Positions 5,730-37,160 of a stretch of 64,000 nucleotides of DNA are shown here, piece by piece (position 1 is the first letter of the stretch; the number at the start of each line of letters is the position of its first letter). The DNA comes from Escherichia phage vB_EcoM_3HA14. The DNA lies in sequence record MN342151.1, one strand, 5' to 3'. The notes beneath the pieces were generated by a model. The model ran no database searches and was not told the origin of the DNA. It worked only from the letters and a program-made list of their open reading frames with translations. A program made the position numbers and the translations under genes.

Positions 5730-5739
5730 AATATCTCTC

Positions 5740-6018
5740 TCAGTCAAAAGTTACAAATGTTACAGCCATAGCTGATTTACATTTCTTTGGGTCTACAATG
5801 TGGTAGATAACTGAACAGTTTCCTGTTCCGTCTGGTACTGGTTTTGTCCAAGTACGTTCAATATTTGGCTCTCCAAACTCTTTATAGAATCCGTTGGAGT
5901 AGTGGTCTATCATCTCAATAGCAAGTGCATCTGGGACGTGACCACGTATCATATACATCTCACTACCATTTCCAGCTTCGCTAATAAGCTCTTTGATATC
6001 CCATTGTTCTCTAGCCAT
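5740..6018 (-). CDS. hypothetical protein
   Basis: ORF 5740..6045 trimmed to internal ATG at 6016-6018 with GAGG RBS; start overlaps stop of upstream gene. Confidence 0.4.
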   Translation of the reverse strand: MAREQWDIKELISEAGNGSEMYMIRGHVPDALAIEMIDHYSNGFYKEFGEPNIERTWTKPVPDGTGNCSVIYHIVDPKKCKSAMAVTFVTFD

Positions 6019-6526
6019 GATAAGTTGCCTCATAAACTGTCTCAAGCTTCAACAAGAGTGATATTGCCAGAACTGCATATTCCCTGTCAAGCATTGGTGG
6101 CATATTATTTTTAAGATATGCTTTCTGTTCCTCCCAAGTCATCTTAGGGGCTTCTGGAAGCTTCTCTCCCTGCTTCTGGTTATCTTCTTGAGTCTGGATA
6201 AACCAGTTCGAGCAATGGTGCTCTCCACCTTTTGTCACGGGCTTATGGTGGCCTAATGTGAAAGCTTTCTTTCCAGAATATCTACAAAGCTTATTAAGGG
6301 TTGCAATAGTGTTCTTGACAACGCAGTATTCATAGAGGTTGTCAATAGTGTAATGAGGGTAGTACTGGAACAAGGCACTATCACGGAACTTACCACGATT
6401 CCAAAGCACCATGTGATTAGAATTTGAAGGGTCATACTGATGTGACTCGATGAACTCTTGACGCTCATCAAAATCAAGACGAAGAACAGACATTGCAGCA
6501 GCACGTTTCAGATTTGAATGGTACAT
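6011..6526 (-). CDS. HNH endonuclease-like protein (possible homing endonuclease)
   Basis: 171 aa; C..C...GHHKPVTKGGEHHCSNW...N pattern resembling HNH motif; weak, read by eye only. Confidence 0.3.
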   Translation of the reverse strand: MYHSNLKRAAAMSVLRLDFDERQEFIESHQYDPSNSNHMVLWNRGKFRDSALFQYYPHYTIDNLYEYCVVKNTIATLNKLCRYSGKKAFTLGHHKPVTKGGEHHCSNWFIQTQEDNQKQGEKLPEAPKMTWEEQKAYLKNNMPPMLDREYAVLAISLLLKLETVYEATYHG

Positions 6527-24074: not shown

Positions 24075-26774
24075 ATGGACAATGTAGATTTCGAAAAATT
24101 ACATTTGGTTGGTGATACAGAAACTGATGGGTTGCTCCTTGAGTTTACAAAAGCACACGTAATGGCTTTCGCAGACTATAAAGATGACAGTGATGAACCT
24201 GCTGTGTGGGTTTTCACTGATGAGCCTATTCTTGGTCACAAGTATACAAAATACATCAAAGGTGGTCTGCGTGAAGGTGTTGAGTTTGCACTGAAAGCTA
24301 AACGTCTTTGTATCCACAATGGTCTTGGTTATGACTGGTGGGTGTTTAATCACATTGCACCTGACCTGTGGAACTTTGAGAATCCTAAGTGTAAGCCTTG
24401 GGGTGACTTCTTTCAGGATTCACTTATCCAATCTCGCGTACAGTGGATGGATAGACCTACGCCAAAAGGTTACAAAGGTGCTCATGGTTTAGCTGCATGG
24501 GGTGCTCGTGTAGGTGTCCGTAAACCAGAGATTGAAGAGTGGGGTGTCTGGAATGCAGAGATTCTTACTCGTGTTGTAGAAGATATTAAGATTAACGCCA
24601 AAACTAAACGTGCTCTTGATAATGAGTACCTCAAGCTTAAGAAGTGTGGTGTTGACACTTATGAAACCTACATGCGAGCTAAAGAAACATCCTTCTGGAT
24701 GAGTCAGCAAGCTATCAACGGTTGGAAAGCTGATGTAGAACTTATGCAGTTCCACGTTAAAGAACTTGACAAGTTAACTAACGAGTTGGCTGCTGAGGTT
24801 GAACCACACCTTCCACCAACTATTAAGACAAAAGGTAAAGTCACAGGTGAAGAATTTGCCAAGTCTTGGAACGAGTATGTAGATACATTTGGTCACGTTG
24901 ATGGTTTGAAAAGGATTACCAAGTACCCTAAGACAAAGTATCGTGAACAGATGCGTGAAGGTGAGTTGAAGCAGTACCCTATCAAGCCGTATGGTAAGCC
25001 AACTACAAAGATTTTTAATGTTGAGAAGCGCAACTGCTACACTCCAACTAACACGGTCACAAAAGAAGAGTACCCTGAAGGTTTTGTAGCAATGAAAGAT
25101 GCTCGTGCAGTTTGTAATGAACTGAATGAGAAGATTGGCAAGAAGTGTAAAGATTGGAAGCCAGTTAAGACTGTGAAAACTGTGAAGTACTACAACGTTC
25201 ACGTTGTTAATCACTTTGAGTTAGAGTCTAGTCGCTACACTGGTTTGATTGATGCACCATTCACACCAATTGAGTTTGAAGTTTCACGAATGACTCAGGT
25301 AGCTGTGGTGAAGGATTACTTAAAATCCGTTGGCTGGATTCCTGATGATTGGAACTATAAAAAAGATTCTGACGGTCGTCCTATCAAGGTTTGCAGGTTC
25401 AAAGACAACAAAAAGATGATTCGCAAACATCCTAAGTGGGATGAGATGGTTGAACGTTGTGGGTTGAACTATATTGAGCATGAAGGTGTCTACTACATCG
25501 AGCATAACTGGTCTGTTAAGAAGTACACAGATGTGCTTGAGCCTTGCTTGATTAGGACTTCACCAAAGCTTACAGAATCTTCTTATGATACAATCGAAGG
25601 TGAGCTTGGACAGAAGATTGCGAAGTACTATACTTTGATGCACCGACGCAGGACTATCGAGAACTCAAAGGATGATGAGAAAGGTTGGCTGAACCAGATT
25701 CGTCCAGATGGTCGTTTGAGTGCAGGTGCAATGGTGTTTGGTACTTCTACTGGACGTATGACTCAGTATGGTATTGTGAACGTACCTTCTGGTGCTGCTG
25801 TGTACGGTGAGCCAATGAGGGCAGTGTGGATTTGTGAAGAGGGAACCAACGTAGTATCTGTTGATATGAACTCTGCACAGCTTGTACTACTCTGTAACTT
25901 CATGGGTGATAAAGACTTCACCAAAGCGGTAACAGAGGGTAAAGAAGAGATTGAGTTTGTCCGTCAAGAGGATGGAAGATACTACTGTAAACACTTTGAC
26001 CAGTATCTGAATCCAGAGATTGACAAGTATCTGCGTTACGACTCTGAAAACGATTTGTACGTAGTTTACTCAGGGACTGATGCTCACACTCTGAACAGTA
26101 TCTACTTCAGCCTTAATGATGAGCAAGATATCTTGACTTGTCGTGCTACTCAGGATGAGAATCTTCTTCATGAGATTAGCAAGGGACGTAAGAAAGCTAA
26201 GAATGGTATCTATGCTTTGTTGTTCGGTGCAGGTGATGAGAAGTTTGCTAAAACAATTAAAGCAGCAACTACTCAGGAAGGTGCATTGACTAAGCAGACT
26301 TACTTTGTGCGTTTACCGAAGATTAAGAAACTGTTAGACAACTTGGAAGCTGATTTCAAAGCAACTAAGAAAGCACTTGAAGAGGTGTTTGGTAAAACTG
26401 CTGCAATCTCTAAAGGTGGTTTTGTGAAGGTTGCTGGGGCTTGGCTGTGGTGTAAGTCTCCACACAAACTCTTGAACTATTTGCTGATGGGTTCAGAAGC
26501 ACAAGTTCAGAATGAAGCAATCAACCTTGCATGTCGTCGTATGATTGACGAAGGTTTGATGAAGTTGAATGGTCGTAAACCAGCTATTGGTGCTCGCTTA
26601 CTCTGTGCTTACCACGATGAAACAAGCTGGGAATGTCCAGAGAGCATGACAGCAGATGTGAAAGCAGTAACTGACTGGTATTATGGTCAAGCATCTAAGA
26701 ACCTTGGGCTAAGAAAAGAGACATTGGTCACAGGTGCAGGGAAAGTTGGTAAATCGTGGCTTGAAGTCCACTAA
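24075..26774 (+). CDS. DNA polymerase, family A, with N-terminal 3'-5' exonuclease
   Basis: 899 aa; Exo I-like DTETDG; motif A VVSVDMNSAQLVLL, motif B RKKAKNGIYALLFG, motif C YHDE. Confidence 0.85.
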   Translation: MDNVDFEKLHLVGDTETDGLLLEFTKAHVMAFADYKDDSDEPAVWVFTDEPILGHKYTKYIKGGLREGVEFALKAKRLCIHNGLGYDWWVFNHIAPDLWNFENPKCKPWGDFFQDSLIQSRVQWMDRPTPKGYKGAHGLAAWGARVGVRKPEIEEWGVWNAEILTRVVEDIKINAKTKRALDNEYLKLKKCGVDTYETYMRAKETSFWMSQQAINGWKADVELMQFHVKELDKLTNELAAEVEPHLPPTIKTKGKVTGEEFAKSWNEYVDTFGHVDGLKRITKYPKTKYREQMREGELKQYPIKPYGKPTTKIFNVEKRNCYTPTNTVTKEEYPEGFVAMKDARAVCNELNEKIGKKCKDWKPVKTVKTVKYYNVHVVNHFELESSRYTGLIDAPFTPIEFEVSRMTQVAVVKDYLKSVGWIPDDWNYKKDSDGRPIKVCRFKDNKKMIRKHPKWDEMVERCGLNYIEHEGVYYIEHNWSVKKYTDVLEPCLIRTSPKLTESSYDTIEGELGQKIAKYYTLMHRRRTIENSKDDEKGWLNQIRPDGRLSAGAMVFGTSTGRMTQYGIVNVPSGAAVYGEPMRAVWICEEGTNVVSVDMNSAQLVLLCNFMGDKDFTKAVTEGKEEIEFVRQEDGRYYCKHFDQYLNPEIDKYLRYDSENDLYVVYSGTDAHTLNSIYFSLNDEQDILTCRATQDENLLHEISKGRKKAKNGIYALLFGAGDEKFAKTIKAATTQEGALTKQTYFVRLPKIKKLLDNLEADFKATKKALEEVFGKTAAISKGGFVKVAGAWLWCKSPHKLLNYLLMGSEAQVQNEAINLACRRMIDEGLMKLNGRKPAIGARLLCAYHDETSWECPESMTADVKAVTDWYYGQASKNLGLRKETLVTGAGKVGKSWLEVH

Positions 26775-27036: not shown

Positions 27037-27242
27037 GCCATCGTGGAAGAACTCATCTCGCCATGATGCAAGGTGCTTCAAAAGAGACTATCAAGAATCG
27101 GAAGAAAACTCTTTTTGACAGAATGAATAGACTCATCGATAATGCAAGCCTACCTAACTCTGAAAAGGTTTTCTTGAAAGGGAATCTGAAGAGTATTGCA
27201 CAGGAACTTATTGACATTGAATTTTGGAGACACCAAAAATGA
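27033..27242 (+). CDS. hypothetical protein
   Basis: 69 aa ORF, overlapping stop/start with neighbours. Confidence 0.4.
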   Translation: MSHRGRTHLAMMQGASKETIKNRKKTLFDRMNRLIDNASLPNSEKVFLKGNLKSIAQELIDIEFWRHQK

Positions 27243-27430
27243 CATACGAAGAAGCTCTCGAAGCTATGAAACAGGGCAAGAAAGTTCGAAATGAAAATTT
27301 CACATCTGATGAGTTCTTTGAAATAAAAGACGGAAAGGTTGTATGTGAAATGGGTTACCCAATGGCTGCATGGTACAAGGGGGAACCTTGGCAGAAAACT
27401 GGATGGAGTATCTTTAATGAAACTTTATAG
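27224..27430 (+). CDS. hypothetical protein
   Basis: 68 aa ORF. Confidence 0.4.
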   Translation: METPKMTYEEALEAMKQGKKVRNENFTSDEFFEIKDGKVVCEMGYPMAAWYKGEPWQKTGWSIFNETL

Positions 27431-27549: not shown

Positions 27550-27801
27550 GTGAGCAATAAAGAGCAAGAAGCTTTAGCAATCTTCAAGAGCGAAGACAAA
27601 TCAATAGCTTTTGTCTCAGAGGCTTGGTGCAGGGATTTGGGGTATGATTGGTATCTCTTCTTATGCGCTAAGAAAGATGTTAAACCAGTTGATGAAACCC
27701 GATTCAAAGAACTGTATAATATCTGCCAAGAGGGTTATGAAGAACATTACGAAGGTTCTTTGAATCCTGTAAATTCAAAAGCTTCAGATTTATTTTATTG
27801 A
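27550..27801 (+). CDS. hypothetical protein
   Basis: 83 aa ORF. Confidence 0.4.
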   Translation: MSNKEQEALAIFKSEDKSIAFVSEAWCRDLGYDWYLFLCAKKDVKPVDETRFKELYNICQEGYEEHYEGSLNPVNSKASDLFY

Positions 27802-27811
27802 GAGGTTTGAA

Positions 27812-28057
27812 ATGTTAAAATTATTGATACCAGCTTTAGTAGTCCTACTGGTTGGATGTAACCCTTCTTATGAGAATAAGGATGCTTCTTACAGACTTCC
27901 TCCAGAAATGCAAGACTGCAAGATTTATAAACTTAATGGTGATGCCATTAGCAGGGATGTTATTGTAGTTCGCTGCCCAAATTCTCAGACGACAACTTCT
28001 TACAAGTATGGGAAGAATAGTCAGTCACACACCACAGTTTTTGATGGGGGATATTAA
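27812..28057 (+). CDS. putative lipoprotein (signal peptide plus lipobox LLVGC)
   Basis: MLKLLIPALVVLLVGC N-terminus; 81 aa; two further Cys in the mature part. Confidence 0.5.
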   Translation: MLKLLIPALVVLLVGCNPSYENKDASYRLPPEMQDCKIYKLNGDAISRDVIVVRCPNSQTTTSYKYGKNSQSHTTVFDGGY

Positions 28058-28265: not shown

Positions 28266-28795
28266 GTGAAAAAAGGTTATTCAAAGAGTCCTACAGTAAT
28301 CTGAAGATGGGTTATCAAGGCTACTCAATACCTTGGTATGAAGATAAGAAAAAACAGTATTCAAACCCTTTTATATATCAACCTGTAAAACTCTCTGTAC
28401 TGGAGTTTTGGCATGAAACTGGAGCTACGCCATACCAATTTGACAACATGGAATATGCGCGTATTTGTAAAAGTCTTGGTGCAAGACAAGTTGATAATAT
28501 CATTGAACATTTGAAGGATTTGTATAAAGATTTTGCTGGATACTTATACGAGAAACAGTTTGGGGAGTGCTTAAAATACCCAGATGGGTCACTTGTTCTG
28601 CTCTCATACATGTCTAATGGTAACATAAAAATTGCATACAAAGACCTGTGTGATAACTACTATGATTTTTATACTAGATTGAGACTACCATACCCAGATA
28701 GCTCCTTTTCCTTATCTAGCAATGCAATGACGCACTCTGGGAATATTGTTTCTGTTGAAAAATTAAAAAAGACGTGGGAGAAGAAAAATAAATGA
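28262..28795 (+). CDS. hypothetical protein
   Basis: about 177 aa; ATG at 28262 preceded by AAGG. Confidence 0.45.
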   Translation: MSEKRLFKESYSNLKMGYQGYSIPWYEDKKKQYSNPFIYQPVKLSVLEFWHETGATPYQFDNMEYARICKSLGARQVDNIIEHLKDLYKDFAGYLYEKQFGECLKYPDGSLVLLSYMSNGNIKIAYKDLCDNYYDFYTRLRLPYPDSSFSLSSNAMTHSGNIVSVEKLKKTWEKKNK

Positions 28796-29892
28796 CAATT
28801 CTGTACAAACAAAATAAAGATGGTTCTTTCAACGTCTGGTCATGTGTTGCTGTAGGTGATAAAGTCGTCACAACTTATGGTAAAGAAAATGGCAAGATGA
28901 TGTTTGAAGAGTACACAGCAGAGCCAAAGAACATCGGTAAGAAGAATGAGCGTAATGCTGAACAGCAAGCTCTTTTTGAAGTTGCTGCTAAGTACAAGAA
29001 GCAGGTTGACCGTAAAGGGTATGCTTACACAAAATCTGAAGCAGAGAATGTTGAAAAGGTTGGTGTACAGCTTGCTCAGGATGCTTCCAAGATAAGTCAC
29101 AAGAAGTATCTGGTATTTCCTGCCGATGCTCAACCTAAACTTGATGGGGTTCGTTGCAGGATTTCAAGAGATGCTGACTCAGAAAGTTTTACGGCATATT
29201 CTCGTGAGAACACGGTATACAACATTCCTGTAGAGTTGATTCCTGATGTTCTTCTTATGCTGAAACTGCACAAAGATGTTGAAGATTTCGATGGTGAGAT
29301 TTATGCTCATGGTTGGGACTTGGAAGATATTGTATCTATGATTAAGAATGCTGACAATCCAGACCGTCACCTTCTTAAATTCTACTGGTATGATATCTGT
29401 GACAAGACTAAATCTTGGCCTGAGCGTCGTGAAGTTATTGATAATTCACCAATCGTTGAACTCGGTGATGCTTGCAGGGTTGTACCTGTTCAGACAATCC
29501 GTGTTAACTCTTGGGAAGAATTTGATAATGCTCATGACAACTGGGTTAAACTCAAGTTTGAAGGGGCAATGTATCGGTCAATCTCACCAGATTCGTTCTA
29601 TGAGTGTGGTCATCGCTCTTACTTCCTGATTAAGCACAAGAAGATGCACACACAGGAATTTAAAGTAACGGGTGTAAAGACTGATAAACGTGGTCATGGT
29701 AAGTTCGTTGTAGAGACTCTTCCTAACGTCTTTGTAGATGTTTCATGGAAAACTACACACGAGAAGAAAAAGTATCTTGCTGAACATCCTGAAGAGTTTA
29801 TCGGGAAGCCTTTAACGGTTCAGTTCCAGAAGATGACTCGTAAGGGTTCTTTACAGTTCCCTGTTGGGCTAGTAATTCGAGACTATGAATAG
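28792..29892 (+). CDS. ATP-dependent DNA ligase
   Basis: 366 aa; adenylation motif I KLDGVRC (KxDG) at the expected position; size typical of T7-type ligases. Confidence 0.8.
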   Translation: MTILYKQNKDGSFNVWSCVAVGDKVVTTYGKENGKMMFEEYTAEPKNIGKKNERNAEQQALFEVAAKYKKQVDRKGYAYTKSEAENVEKVGVQLAQDASKISHKKYLVFPADAQPKLDGVRCRISRDADSESFTAYSRENTVYNIPVELIPDVLLMLKLHKDVEDFDGEIYAHGWDLEDIVSMIKNADNPDRHLLKFYWYDICDKTKSWPERREVIDNSPIVELGDACRVVPVQTIRVNSWEEFDNAHDNWVKLKFEGAMYRSISPDSFYECGHRSYFLIKHKKMHTQEFKVTGVKTDKRGHGKFVVETLPNVFVDVSWKTTHEKKKYLAEHPEEFIGKPLTVQFQKMTRKGSLQFPVGLVIRDYE

Positions 29893-29900
29893 AGGTTAGT

Positions 29901-30050
29901 ATGTTTAGCACAATTATCCTGTTTGTTTTTGTTGTTTTATCATTATCTTACTTCATAAGTAAACTTTTAAGCATAACATACAAAGCAGCCTTAGCCCTTA
30001 CTCTGTTGTCATTTGCAGTAAATGCAGCAGTTAGAATGTATTTAGTATAA
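29901..30050 (+). CDS. putative small hydrophobic peptide (not in ORF track)
   Basis: ATG at 29901 after GAGG; about 49 codons encoding MFSTIILFVFVVLSLSYFISKLL...; below the track length cut-off. Confidence 0.3.
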   Translation: MFSTIILFVFVVLSLSYFISKLLSITYKAALALTLLSFAVNAAVRMYLV

Positions 30051-30106: not shown

Positions 30107-30133
30107 AACCCGTCAGAAACCTCGGAGGTGTTT

Positions 30134-30514
30134 ATGAAAAAGTTACTTGTTGGTGTCATTGCTATTGGTATGAGTTTTAGTGCAGCAGCTATGAAGATGC
30201 CTGAAGCAAACTTTAATGGTGTCGCTTTAGAATCTTGTAAGATTGTACAGAAAATCGCTTCAAATGCTGGAGAGTTGACTAAACCGTTGTCTGCTCAGAC
30301 TGTTCAAGAAATGACTGATAAGATGGTTGACTACAACTACCATTTTATGGGAGATTACTATGACAGATTAGCAGATGAGATGGTTACTCAGAACGTTGAC
30401 CTTCTTGATAGCAAAGGTATTGAGACTGTAGAAGATGTGAAAGACAATTTTATGCGTGAGTCTTTCAAAGGTGTTCAATACTTTATTGAAAATCGTCACT
30501 GCATGGGTTTATAA
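30134..30514 (+). CDS. hypothetical secreted protein (N-terminal signal peptide)
   Basis: ATG at 30134 with GGAGG RBS; MKKLLVGVIAIGMSFSAAA signal-like N-terminus. Confidence 0.5.
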   Translation: MKKLLVGVIAIGMSFSAAAMKMPEANFNGVALESCKIVQKIASNAGELTKPLSAQTVQEMTDKMVDYNYHFMGDYYDRLADEMVTQNVDLLDSKGIETVEDVKDNFMRESFKGVQYFIENRHCMGL

Positions 30515-34126: not shown

Positions 34127-34501
34127 TTATTTCTTTTTAGTGCTTTGGGTATTTTGTTCTGTAATTGCTTGCAAAGCTGATACAGATTGTGCTAAGTTGT
34201 TAACACTGTCAGAGAACTTATCAAGGGTCTTAGTCAACTTAGCGTTTTCTCCCTTAACATTCTCTAGCTGAACTTTCTGGTTCTCCATCCCTAATTGTAG
34301 GAGCTTCATATCAGATTGTAAGTCACGAATAGCTGAATAGTTACCTTTTGAGTAACCATCCAACTGCTGTAACTTATTTGTGATAGACACTTCCTGTTTA
34401 CCATCAGAGACCTGCATTGTAGTGTACATACCAATTACACTGAAAATACCTACAACGATTGCACCAATATTATTCTTAAAAGCATCTTCAAGCCACTTCA
34501 T
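34127..34501 (-). CDS. membrane-anchored coiled-coil protein (possible i-spanin-like lysis protein)
   Basis: N-terminal TM helix (IGAIVVGIFSVIGMY) then heptad-like coiled coil; function inferred from topology only. Confidence 0.3.
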   Translation of the reverse strand: MKWLEDAFKNNIGAIVVGIFSVIGMYTTMQVSDGKQEVSITNKLQQLDGYSKGNYSAIRDLQSDMKLLQLGMENQKVQLENVKGENAKLTKTLDKFSDSVNNLAQSVSALQAITEQNTQSTKKK

Positions 34502-34695
34502 TATTTCTCACCTTTAAAAGCCTTTTCCAAGGTATCTACAAATTCATCATCAATAGGTGTATCTGTTTTGCTCGCAAGGTATCTTGCAAGCTTAAAGAAC
34601 ACTTTTTCAATCATGTATTCACTGAGAAGAGAAAAAAGAAGCTTCCAAAAGAATGCCCCAAGGTTTTTCATGAGGATTGCTAGAATGGTTGGCAT
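34501..34695 (-). CDS. small membrane protein (possible holin)
   Basis: 64 aa, hydrophobic N-terminus, charged C-terminus; start overlaps stop of downstream gene. Confidence 0.3.
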   Translation of the reverse strand: MPTILAILMKNLGAFFWKLLFSLLSEYMIEKVFFKLARYLASKTDTPIDDEFVDTLEKAFKGEK

Positions 34696-34781: not shown

Positions 34782-37160
34782 TTATGCAGTTCTTACCCAA
34801 GCCATTAATTTAATGTAAGTGTTCTGAACACTGAATGCTGCACCAGAACCAGTTGCACCAGTGTTACCACTAAATGTGTGGTTGTGAGCACCAATACCTA
34901 CACCGTGACCGTGAGCACCTACCCAACTTGTTCTCCCTGTCCAAGTTCTTGATGCGTAGAAGTTGACAGGTGTACCATAAGTGAATTGTGAACCAGTATA
35001 ACCTCTAGAGGCTTGTGAACCTGAGATAGCGAATGCCCCACTTGCTGTATAGAAGCTGTTTGCATCACTTCTGAAGAAACCAAAGTCACCAGAGATTTCC
35101 ATGTTACCTCTGTCATGGTCGTGAGCACCTTGAGCGTCTGTGTACTTAGTACCATAATCAAATGTACTTGTTGTTCCAGAGAAGCTATGAGTGTGCGCAG
35201 GAATATGACCAACACTTAGAGCCACCGTATCAGAACCACCAAGACCTTTCACATCGGAACCATTTGCAGAACCAATCCTAATAGTTCTGTTTGCACCTTC
35301 TGTCAAGTAAGTCCAAGTAGTGCCTGGGAAAGCTGTATTTGGGTTGACATTAGAAGCAAAGAACGTCACAATACCAACTGGATACACTTTCTTAAGGTCT
35401 GTAGAATCAGTTACCGCAGAGGCAATACGTTGGTCTACTTCAGCCTTGGTGTAAGCACCAAGTTCAGAGGGTGTAGGTTTGTCTTGGTCTGTGTAGATTT
35501 TAGCCCAAACCTCTTCAAAACCAAATCCATCCCTTGCTGTTCTATAATAGATTCCAGTATTCTTGTAGTTAAATTTAAACTGTGCAGTCGGTGTAGATGT
35601 ACCAACTCCAAGGTGCATTTGGTAAACTAAGTGAGTAGACCCACCAGTTGAATTTGTAACACTGTACAAACCTGTTTTTGAATTCCAAGCAATACCTGTT
35701 GCATCACCTACTTCTGTTCCCGTTCCAGATACACCAGACAACATATATCTTGAGTTTGCAGCAGATTGTGTGTAGTATCTTGAGTCAAAGTTTGACCAAT
35801 CTGTAGGCTGAACCTGACCAGTTACTGATACGCTTCTGTTGAACATGAAAGTGTCAGCAATTTCTAACTGTACACCACCACTTGAATAGTTGTACAGGAA
35901 CAGAGAATTTGGCCTACTGCCTTCACCGTTACCAATATACCAACGTCTGTTGCCGTCTGCATTAGCGCCAACAATATACAGTGATGAATTAGCTGTCCCA
36001 CTTTGCAATGTGAAAGCCGCATCTGTAGTAACAATAGTTTGTGGGTTAGTAAAAACGTTTGCAGCATTAGTTCTTGCAAGCACGTTCGTTAAAGAGCTTG
36101 GAACATATCTTGTATCAAAGTTTGCGAAGTCACTTGGTTTTACCTGACCAGATACATTAATAGCTTTGTTAAATGAAAACTCTGTAGCAATTTTCAAGTT
36201 AACATTTGTCATCTGGTTTGCTAAAACAATCTCAGACTGCGTACCATCTGGTTGACCCACATACCAAGCACCTGTCCCAGCACTGTTGTAACCACGCATA
36301 AATAATGCAGCATTCTCTGAAGCCGCTCTTAAGTTAAGTGCATTACTATCTGCAATAACATAAGTCTTCCCGTTGAAGTTGTTAACCCCAACAAAGTTAT
36401 TACTTGCATTAAGTCTTGCAAATCTCTGGTCAGCAGCAGTCTGTGTAAAGAATCTTGCATCAAGGTTGTTCCAGTTATTAGGCTGAACCTGACCATTGAT
36501 TTCAAAGTTCTTGTCAACACTAACAGAGTTTGTACCAAGAGTCAACGTAGCACCTTTGCTGTTAACTAATGTAACATCAGTCCCAGAAGTCAAGTTACCA
36601 ACTGTGAATCTCAAAGCATTATTTGAGTCTCTTGCTTCAATATATGCTCCACCATCTGGTAAGATACTTTTAAGTGTCAAACCAACACCGTTGATATTAA
36701 TGATTTGTCTTGCCAAGAAAGTATTTTCAGTTTCCTTCATAGCATATCTTGCATCATTTTCAGTGTTAGTTCTCATACCTAATTCATTAGGAGATGGTTT
36801 ATTAAGTGTGTGATAAACTGTTGCAGACCTTGTGGCATCATTTACAGTTAATCTTAAAGCACTTGCATTAATTCTAAAGGTCTTGGCAGTGTCACCGAGA
36901 ATAACTTCAGAAGAACCTGTTGGGTCTAATAAGTCTTTTCCACCGTATCTTAATTTAACGATGCCAAGATTTCCTGTCATATCCCCACCAGTTAGTTGTA
37001 AGAATCTTTCTAGTTTGAAAGAGGCAAGGAAATTTGCATAGGTCATTTTACGGTCTTCATCACCTAGCATATCAGACCTTTTGATAATTCTTAGGTGAAG
37101 TAAATCTTCTGAGCGAACTGTATCAATACTGTTTAGCTCACTTAGCTTATATTCAGCCAT
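34782..37160 (-). CDS. tail fiber protein with His-rich (HxH) C-terminal tip
   Basis: 792 aa, Gly/Ser/Thr/Asn-rich; C-terminal HTHSFSG...GAHGHGVGIGAHNHTFSG...WVRTA shared with the next ORF. Confidence 0.65.
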   Translation of the reverse strand: MAEYKLSELNSIDTVRSEDLLHLRIIKRSDMLGDEDRKMTYANFLASFKLERFLQLTGGDMTGNLGIVKLRYGGKDLLDPTGSSEVILGDTAKTFRINASALRLTVNDATRSATVYHTLNKPSPNELGMRTNTENDARYAMKETENTFLARQIININGVGLTLKSILPDGGAYIEARDSNNALRFTVGNLTSGTDVTLVNSKGATLTLGTNSVSVDKNFEINGQVQPNNWNNLDARFFTQTAADQRFARLNASNNFVGVNNFNGKTYVIADSNALNLRAASENAALFMRGYNSAGTGAWYVGQPDGTQSEIVLANQMTNVNLKIATEFSFNKAINVSGQVKPSDFANFDTRYVPSSLTNVLARTNAANVFTNPQTIVTTDAAFTLQSGTANSSLYIVGANADGNRRWYIGNGEGSRPNSLFLYNYSSGGVQLEIADTFMFNRSVSVTGQVQPTDWSNFDSRYYTQSAANSRYMLSGVSGTGTEVGDATGIAWNSKTGLYSVTNSTGGSTHLVYQMHLGVGTSTPTAQFKFNYKNTGIYYRTARDGFGFEEVWAKIYTDQDKPTPSELGAYTKAEVDQRIASAVTDSTDLKKVYPVGIVTFFASNVNPNTAFPGTTWTYLTEGANRTIRIGSANGSDVKGLGGSDTVALSVGHIPAHTHSFSGTTSTFDYGTKYTDAQGAHDHDRGNMEISGDFGFFRSDANSFYTASGAFAISGSQASRGYTGSQFTYGTPVNFYASRTWTGRTSWVGAHGHGVGIGAHNHTFSGNTGATGSGAAFSVQNTYIKLMAWVRTA

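Follow-up and report, generated by a model that had tools for sequence, protein, structure and literature searches.

An 81-residue open reading frame (ORF) of Escherichia phage vB_EcoM_3HA14, located within a 64,000-nucleotide stretch of its DNA (MN342151.1; the whole of this stretch is referred to here as the window), appears to encode a small lipoprotein, and it raises the question of what such a protein does for the phage that produces it. To our knowledge, only two roles are known for the small lipoproteins of lytic phages, namely, the jamming of receptors, as by Llp and Cor, and the disruption of the outer membrane by o-spanins. A preliminary description of the locus, made from the sequence alone, had favored the former role and proposed a candidate superinfection exclusion factor that blocks the phage's own receptor after infection. 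We find that the underlying observation is right, while the specific interpretation is mostly not supported.

Gene structure and predicted lipoprotein processing

The gene (27812..28057, plus strand) has exactly the coordinates and length first described and reads as complete, with an ATG start, 81 codons, and a TAA stop. A Shine-Dalgarno-like GAGAGG (27800..27805, plus strand), likewise read from the sequence, lies 6 nt 5' of the ATG and shares bases with the TGA (27799-27801) that ends the 83-aa ORF upstream, which suggests that the genes are tightly packed in one operon; on the other side, a 68-aa ORF begins one base past the lipoprotein stop codon. The GC content of the gene is 38%, compared with 39.5% for the window. 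The 81-aa precursor consists of MLKLLIPALVVLLVG up to the predicted lipobox cut and CNPSYENKDASYRLPPEMQDCKIYKLNGDAISRDVIVVRCPNSQTTTSYKYGKNSQSHTTVFDGGY beyond it. Its N terminus is M-L-K followed by an uncharged 12-residue run ending L-V-G-C16. The predicted signal peptide (residues 1 to 15; 27812..27856, plus strand) thus has K3 in its n-region and an uncharged h-region, with K3 and L13 conserved in 117 homologs; the lipobox L13-V14-G15-C16 (27848..27859, plus strand) conforms to the PROSITE-type rule, and C16 (27857-27859, plus strand), the predicted lipid-modified residue 1 of the mature protein, is invariant in the same 117 homologs. A variable tether (residues 17 to 26; 27860..27889, plus strand), visible as high-entropy alignment columns, would connect the lipid anchor to a conserved mature domain (residues 27 to 76; 27890..28039, plus strand) that is delimited by conservation and an AlphaFold2 model. 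The two further cysteines that had been noted in the mature part are C36 (27917..27919, plus strand) and C55 (27974..27976, plus strand), and both are invariant in the 117 sequences.

A lipobox alone is not evidence for a lipoprotein, since the PROSITE-type rule is also satisfied in random sequence: three ORFs of the window pass this looser rule, compared with 1.3 +/- 1.1 in Markov-1 random sequence of the same dinucleotide makeup. The signal peptide with its terminal lipobox held up under a strict filter that combines a lipobox, an uncharged h-region, and a positive n-region, and this ORF was the sole one to pass in all six frames of the 64-kb window. In E. coli, the residue after the lipid-modified cysteine governs lipoprotein sorting (the +2 rule). 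This residue is Asn in the window protein, with no Asp, which predicts sorting to the outer membrane. Among 246 family members, the +2 residue is E in 53, S in 42, T in 28, N in 27, and D in 26; as Asp occupies this position in about 10% of members, an outer membrane location may not be universal.

Genomic context

Over 8 kb around the ORF, identity to Shigella phage Sf15 (Ounavirinae, Mooglevirus) is 99.0%, and for many FelixO1-like phages, which infect Shigella, Citrobacter, E. coli, and Salmonella, it is 85 to 98%; to judge from these identities, the window belongs to a Mooglevirus (Ounavirinae), that is, a FelixO1-like virulent phage. The gene, which is annotated in all of the related genomes examined, corresponds to Sf15 gp60 (annotated as "hypothetical protein; predicted membrane protein") and is a homolog of Moogle gp40. 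The identical protein has been deposited from at least seven Mooglevirus phages, each time as hypothetical.

The surrounding plus-strand block runs from a DNA polymerase gene (24075-26774) through six small ORFs to the lipoprotein gene, the 68-aa ORF, a 179-aa ORF, and a DNA ligase gene (28792-29892), and it continues past the ligase gene to dihydrofolate reductase and thymidylate synthase. The 83-aa ORF immediately upstream has no transmembrane segment, and the nearest tail fiber gene (34782-37160) is on the opposite strand, 6.7 kb away. The location of the gene within this DNA polymerase-ligase-thymidylate synthase block makes its assignment to the early region plausible. The frequency of promoter-like sites in the window was not above chance, and a literature search found no transcriptome paper that would time expression of the gene. 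That the ORF encodes a small lipoprotein of a phage, with two conserved cysteines and a place among replication genes, is borne out by the ORF, the alignment, and the gene order.

Several neighboring products were also noted. Another 68-aa ORF, at 27224-27430 (plus strand), three genes upstream of the lipoprotein gene, matches the Pfam family PF11195, "Thoeris anti-defense 2-like" (DUF2829), with an E value of 4.9e-5 and a score of 24.2 bits, just under the 25-bit cutoff, and several solved Tad2 proteins are among its weak PDB matches (E values of about 0.6-0.7); it may encode an anti-Thoeris sponge in an Ounavirinae phage. Directly after the ligase gene lie two further envelope-directed early products, a 49-aa hydrophobic peptide (29901-30050, plus strand; phrog_22006) and a 128-aa protein with an apparent signal peptide (30128-30514, plus strand; phrog_4332, function not assigned in PHROG).

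The DUF4884 family

The window protein matches phrog_902 ("unknown function") over residues 1 to 76 with an E value of 5.1e-17. In the precomputed Pfam annotation, a 94%-identical cluster representative and every homolog (P0001-P0254) bear the label PF16225 (DUF4884, E<=1e-5). No member matched PF16225 in a local Pfam-A hmmscan with a threshold as loose as E<=10; that copy may lack the model, and the Pfam label therefore rests on the precomputed data. Pfam LPAM_1 matches 24 of the 117 members, and this match aside, NCBIfam, PADLOC, and local Pfam-A scans gave nothing for the window protein or the homologs tested. A search with the family HMM recovered 631 clusters (50% identity) at E<=1e-3, nearly all with lengths of 75 to 110 aa.

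The alignment of 117 diverse members has only three invariant columns, C16, C36, and C55, while K3, P30, P56, T60, and K68 are conserved in at least 90%; one close homolog (P0009) has Y in place of C55. The mature consensus is Y-x-L-P-x-E-L/M-x-D-C-K-x-Y ... V-V-R-C-P-N-S-x-T-x-T ... G-K, and the window protein carries all of these motifs. The variable zones are the tether (residues 17 to 26) and a loop at residues 42 to 49, and across the family, 10 to 22 residues (median, 12) separate the lipid-modified cysteine from the LP motif. The lipobox, the two invariant cysteines, and the LPxELxDCK, VVRCPNSxTxT, and GK motifs are thus common to the protein and the DUF4884 / phrog_902 family, with no defining difference. 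In the mature core of 16 Ounavirinae variants, the median dN/dS was 0.04, and the gene is therefore under strong purifying selection. That it is real and constrained and belongs to the DUF4884 / phrog_902 family of predicted lipoproteins is well supported by these comparisons.

A spurious or functionless ORF carrying a chance lipobox was also considered, as the loose rule is satisfied about 1.3 times per 64 kb of random sequence; it is ruled out by the conservation data (dN/dS of 0.04; 631 clusters), with three invariant cysteines and an annotated gene in every related genome examined pointing the same way, and its probability is negligible. A search of the literature found no functional study on DUF4884, PF16225, Felixounavirus lipoproteins, or lipobox-bearing exclusion proteins. 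The family is already catalogued without a known function, and the finding is not surprising in itself.

Distribution among phages

Members of the family are present in about 200 records from the Ounavirinae and in 291 records from T5-like Vibrio phages (Demerecviridae). Other carriers include jumbo phages (Serratia phage BF, Yersinia phage fHe-Yen9-04, and phAPEC6-like phages of E. coli), CR3-like phages of about 149 kb that infect Cronobacter, Pectobacterium, Enterobacter, and Klebsiella, the T4-like phages Acj61 of Acinetobacter and Aeh1, phiAS5, and AsFcp_2 of Aeromonas, Acinetobacter phages of 44 to 110 kb, and T1-like coliphages. A scan of 185,579 bacterial and archaeal species genomes with a narrow pattern gave one match, in Hylemonella; since the pattern was narrow, divergent bacterial members are still possible, such as the Bacteroides DUF4884 protein, a chromosomally encoded example of which is listed for Bacteroides thetaiotaomicron (PMC8931616). 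As far as these searches reach, the family is one carried by phages.

In all lineages examined, the gene lies among small unannotated early ORFs near genes for replication or nucleotide metabolism; outside the present locus, its neighbors are ribonucleotide reductase, Thy1, MazG, polynucleotide kinase, primase, or ligase genes. When the neighbors at 54 loci were clustered, only DNA ligase recurred outside the Ounavirinae (6 loci), which we read as a shared early-region setting and not as a sign of a functional partner.

Two arrangements in other phages were also observed. A 192-kb metagenomic phage carries two tandem, overlapping DUF4884-like genes (locus L032, 5971-6267 and 6264-6590; the same genes are found in L003/L004), the second of which is a divergent paralog (...YEGC...VVQCSGNQTT...GK...INGVTY). 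In BF and fHe-Yen9-04, the start of the DUF4884 gene overlaps by a few bases the 3' end of a gene for a protein of 69 to 70 aa (L005, 3750-3959; L031, 5780-5992), whose two transmembrane segments and poly-Lys/Arg tail give it a holin-like topology.

Predicted structure

An AlphaFold2 model of the mature part, built with 119 aligned homologs, had a mean pLDDT of 74.9 and predicts a five-strand antiparallel β-meander whose short first strand lies in the tether. In this model, C36 is placed directly before strand β2 and C55 directly after strand β3, so that the two residues face each other at the base of the β2-β3 hairpin, and they probably form a disulfide that staples the hairpin base. Beside the predicted disulfide lies a conserved polar patch formed by D35, K37, R54, P56-N57-S58, and G67-K68. 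The β2-β3 loop (residues 42 to 49), which is hypervariable and bears indels, is at the opposite end from the cysteines. A Foldseek search of the model against the PDB gave no match at E<=1e-3, and Llp was absent from the top matches; against viral models, only other family members were found. Searches of PDB sequences with the single protein and with the family profile matched signal peptides only. There is thus no informative structural relative among the structures searched.

Comparison with receptor-blocking lipoproteins

T5 Llp is a periplasm-facing outer membrane lipoprotein with an intramolecular disulfide that jams the TonB-dependent receptor FhuA; the llp gene adjoins the gene for the receptor-binding protein pb5, and Cor proteins are distant relatives of Llp, with similar lipoproteins encoded downstream of gpJ in other siphophages (PMC9586334). 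The analogy with Llp that had been drawn for the window protein holds for the general anatomy: both are small lipoproteins of the outer membrane type from lytic phages, with a lipobox and a cysteine pair (in the window protein, the disulfide is predicted), and the gene is placed among early genes. It does not hold for family membership or for the own-receptor mechanism. An hhalign comparison of the family profile with Llp aligned 19 signal-peptide columns only, and the mature domains have no homology. Llp belongs to phrog_1119, "Cor superinfection exclusion protein" (E value of 1e-19), whereas the window protein has no match to phrog_1119. The window gene is flanked by DNA polymerase, small hypothetical genes, and ligase instead of a receptor-binding or tail fiber gene. 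The receptor would differ as well, as the Ounavirinae are reported to target lipopolysaccharide (LPS), with no protein receptor (PMC8594841), rather than a TonB-dependent transporter, and the DUF4884 family is common to phages with unrelated receptors.

The lipoprotein also does not covary with the tips of the tail fibers. Identity to the window lipoprotein is 90% or more in 38 phage records, whereas the last 300 residues of the tail fiber reach this level in only 12; in phages of the BPS17W1, CL1, and VpaE1 types, the fiber tip cannot be aligned, while the lipoprotein is still 79 to 87% identical. This combination of a constant lipoprotein and variable tips spans phages of Shigella, E. coli, Salmonella, and Citrobacter, among which identity over the mature domain is 80 to 87%.

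A further line of evidence comes from phages that carry both kinds of lipoprotein. The T1-like phage JLBYU26 encodes an 86-aa early-region lipoprotein with two cysteines, labeled "DUF4884 domain-containing" by NCBI (L061, 1245-1505), which matches phrog_902 and aligns with the family profile with a probability of 94.8% and an E value of 5e-8, both cysteines being in register. It also encodes a separate 91-aa lipoprotein with two cysteines and no functional annotation next to a tail fiber gene (L062, 7397-7672, minus strand), at the site where a Cor-type exclusion protein would be expected. The ORF list of Henu8 contains a DUF4884 member alongside Cor (PMC12210894). The T1-like phage pSf-1 has no family member and was therefore unsuited to this check on coexistence, for which JLBYU26 was used.

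An Llp-like block of the phage's own receptor thus failed in all of the tests that were run, namely, homology, phrog_1119 membership, gene position, the reported LPS receptor, covariation with fiber tips, and coexistence with a separate lipoprotein at the receptor-binding locus or a Cor protein in T1-like phages. From homology limited to the signal peptide, together with gene position, LPS, fiber tips, and coexistence, we conclude that the window protein is Llp-like in anatomy and not in family or mechanism, and that it probably does not block the phage's own receptor. It is accordingly improbable, in our estimate, that the protein brings about lytic conversion of the Llp/Cor type, in which binding from the periplasmic face would distort the phage's own outer membrane receptor and block the adsorption of further phages; just as improbable is the corollary that progeny meeting cell debris would be kept from adsorbing in the same way.

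Comparison with spanins

The second known role, disruption of the outer membrane, was considered through the Rz1-type o-spanins, which are also small outer membrane lipoproteins of phages. Sf15 and Moogle have an annotated, overlapped i-spanin/o-spanin (Rz/Rz1) pair beside a polynucleotide kinase gene; in Sf15, the pair is at 5736-6246, and the sequence corresponding to the window start follows 3 kb later. The lysis genes of Moogle are scattered (PMC4319497).

The "putative holin" of Sf15 and Moogle corresponds to 34127-34501 (minus strand) in the window. Its product has one N-terminal transmembrane segment and a coiled coil of about 90 residues, an i-spanin-like or scaffold-like shape that is not typical of a holin, and there is no lipoprotein gene alongside. 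The annotation as "putative holin" in the relatives may be wrong, and a 64-aa hydrophobic ORF just upstream (34501-34695, minus strand) looks like a better holin candidate. It was this pairing of a membrane anchor with a coiled coil that led us to consider the lipoprotein as a detached o-spanin, an idea that was rejected on account of the annotated Rz/Rz1 pair outside the window in Sf15 and Moogle.

A looser role as a lysis accessory, in which an orphan o-spanin-like or lysis-timing lipoprotein would act late together with holin or spanin proteins, has some indications in its favor: the lipoprotein is of the outer membrane type, it has a weak and nonsignificant match to phrog_456, "Rz-like spanin" (E value of 0.09), the BF and fHe-Yen9-04 genes overlap that of a holin-like protein with two transmembrane segments, and the "putative holin" of the window looks like a membrane anchor joined to a coiled coil. 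We nevertheless consider such a role quite unlikely. Sf15 and Moogle already possess a standard overlapped spanin pair elsewhere, the 83-aa upstream ORF lacks a transmembrane segment and no i-spanin gene is adjacent, and the gene belongs to the replication block and not to the late genes. Lambda Rz1 is proline rich, whereas the mature part of the window protein has only 4 prolines and is predicted to fold as a β-domain, in which a pair of cysteines is conserved.

Proposed function

Another exclusion system offers a different precedent. The known case in which exclusion targets a conserved part of the phage, and not a receptor, is T4 Spackle (Sp), which is directed against the gp5 tail lysozyme (PMC9586334). 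Sp (gp61.3) is, as the window protein is predicted to be, a small exported early protein, and both are encoded inside a cluster of replication genes; T4 sp adjoins genes 41 and 61 (L064, 5759-6052). The slot that sp has in T4, two genes upstream of 61.1-61, is taken by the DUF4884 gene in the T4-like phage Acj61 (L063, 4456-4707), but in AsFcp_2, a T4-like phage of Aeromonas (L065), the DUF4884 gene lies elsewhere, and the match of slots is not repeated. Sp homologs occur mostly in T-even-type phages of enteric bacteria; the T4-like carriers of DUF4884 infect Acinetobacter and Aeromonas. The two proteins differ in that they have no sequence relation (an hhalign probability of 4.9% over 15 signal-peptide columns) and in that Sp is annotated as a periplasmic protein and not as a lipoprotein. 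The coincidence of slots in Acj61 is a lead only.

Lipoproteins destined for the outer membrane are exported by Sec, processed by Lgt and LspA, and sorted by Lol. By the sequence rules for this route, the precursor would be exported by Sec, lipidated on C16, and cut by signal peptidase II, and with Asn at +2 it would be sorted by Lol to the outer membrane, from which a domain of about 55 residues would extend into the periplasm at the end of a tether of some 10 residues. Production probably takes place alongside that of the replication proteins. The pattern of conservation suggests that the domain acts by binding through the polar patch around the disulfide. The partner bound would be a feature that many Gram-negative hosts, or incoming phages, have in common, and not the variable LPS that this phage itself uses as its receptor; the use of LPS, the constancy of the protein next to variable fiber tips, the broad spread of the family, and its coexistence with Cor-type genes all argue against the own receptor. 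The most likely outcome would be a closed or stabilized envelope in the infected cell, so that later phages are excluded once they have adsorbed or the cell is protected from lysis from without, an effect resembling those of T4 Sp or Imm and unlike the receptor jamming by T5 Llp. The early, replication-gene setting, which is like that of T4 sp, is in keeping with exclusion. That the protein is a periplasm-facing outer membrane lipoprotein which binds a conserved envelope or entry component and thereby brings about postadsorption exclusion or envelope takeover is, at present, a tentative proposal.

Several points stand against this proposal. The conserved residues may be scaffold, in which case the variable β2-β3 loop would set a phage-specific specificity. 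The likeness to Sp or Imm is weakened by the slot that AsFcp_2 does not share with Acj61, by the lack of sequence relation to Sp, and by the absence of a significant PDB match, and the Asp at +2 in about 10% of members weighs against a general outer membrane location. The literature search found no report of superinfection exclusion in FelixO1-like phages. The main rival, which we regard as unlikely, is an inhibitor of a periplasmic enzyme or envelope antagonist, that is, an immunity-like periplasmic protein directed against a murein hydrolase, protease, nuclease, colicin, or type VI secretion effector; it is similarly doubtful whether such an inhibitor would keep the cell intact until lysis or disarm an envelope-linked defense, with phage entry unaffected. 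The polar patch beside the disulfide, together with a hypervariable, indel-bearing hairpin loop at the other end, would suit an inhibitor, as would the tandem paralogs in one 192-kb phage, the occurrence of the family in phages of many hosts, and the position among early genes of the host-takeover type, such as the neighboring Tad2-like ORF (a weak match). Against an inhibitor, the Pfam scans matched no known inhibitor family, no PADLOC family was matched, no solved structure resembles the window protein, and no conserved partner gene emerged among the neighbors clustered. What probability remains after the proposed function and its alternatives we leave to something not yet imagined.

Significance

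The DUF4884 family fits neither of the roles known for the small lipoproteins of lytic phages, yet it is strongly constrained within about 80 residues and, with 631 clusters, ranks with the more widespread of the small envelope proteins that virulent phages of Gram-negative hosts encode. Should its function prove minor, it would be one more conserved hypothetical early gene. A broader possibility, which we put forward with reserve, is that DUF4884 lipoproteins are a pan-phage periplasmic effector with one conserved component of the envelope or of the incoming tail as the target; on this conjecture, the same effector would serve at least six virulent lineages (FelixO1-like, T4-like, T5-like, T1-like, and jumbo phages and Acinetobacter myophages). 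If true, this would amount to a receptor-independent form of exclusion or envelope takeover that is distinct from Llp/Cor, Sp, Imm, and the spanins. There are many proposals to control Salmonella, E. coli, and Shigella with FelixO1-like phages, and the target of the lipoprotein could for that reason matter for the design of phage cocktails; its identity would reveal a novel means of shutting out competitors or, alternatively, a new point of attack in the takeover of the host envelope.
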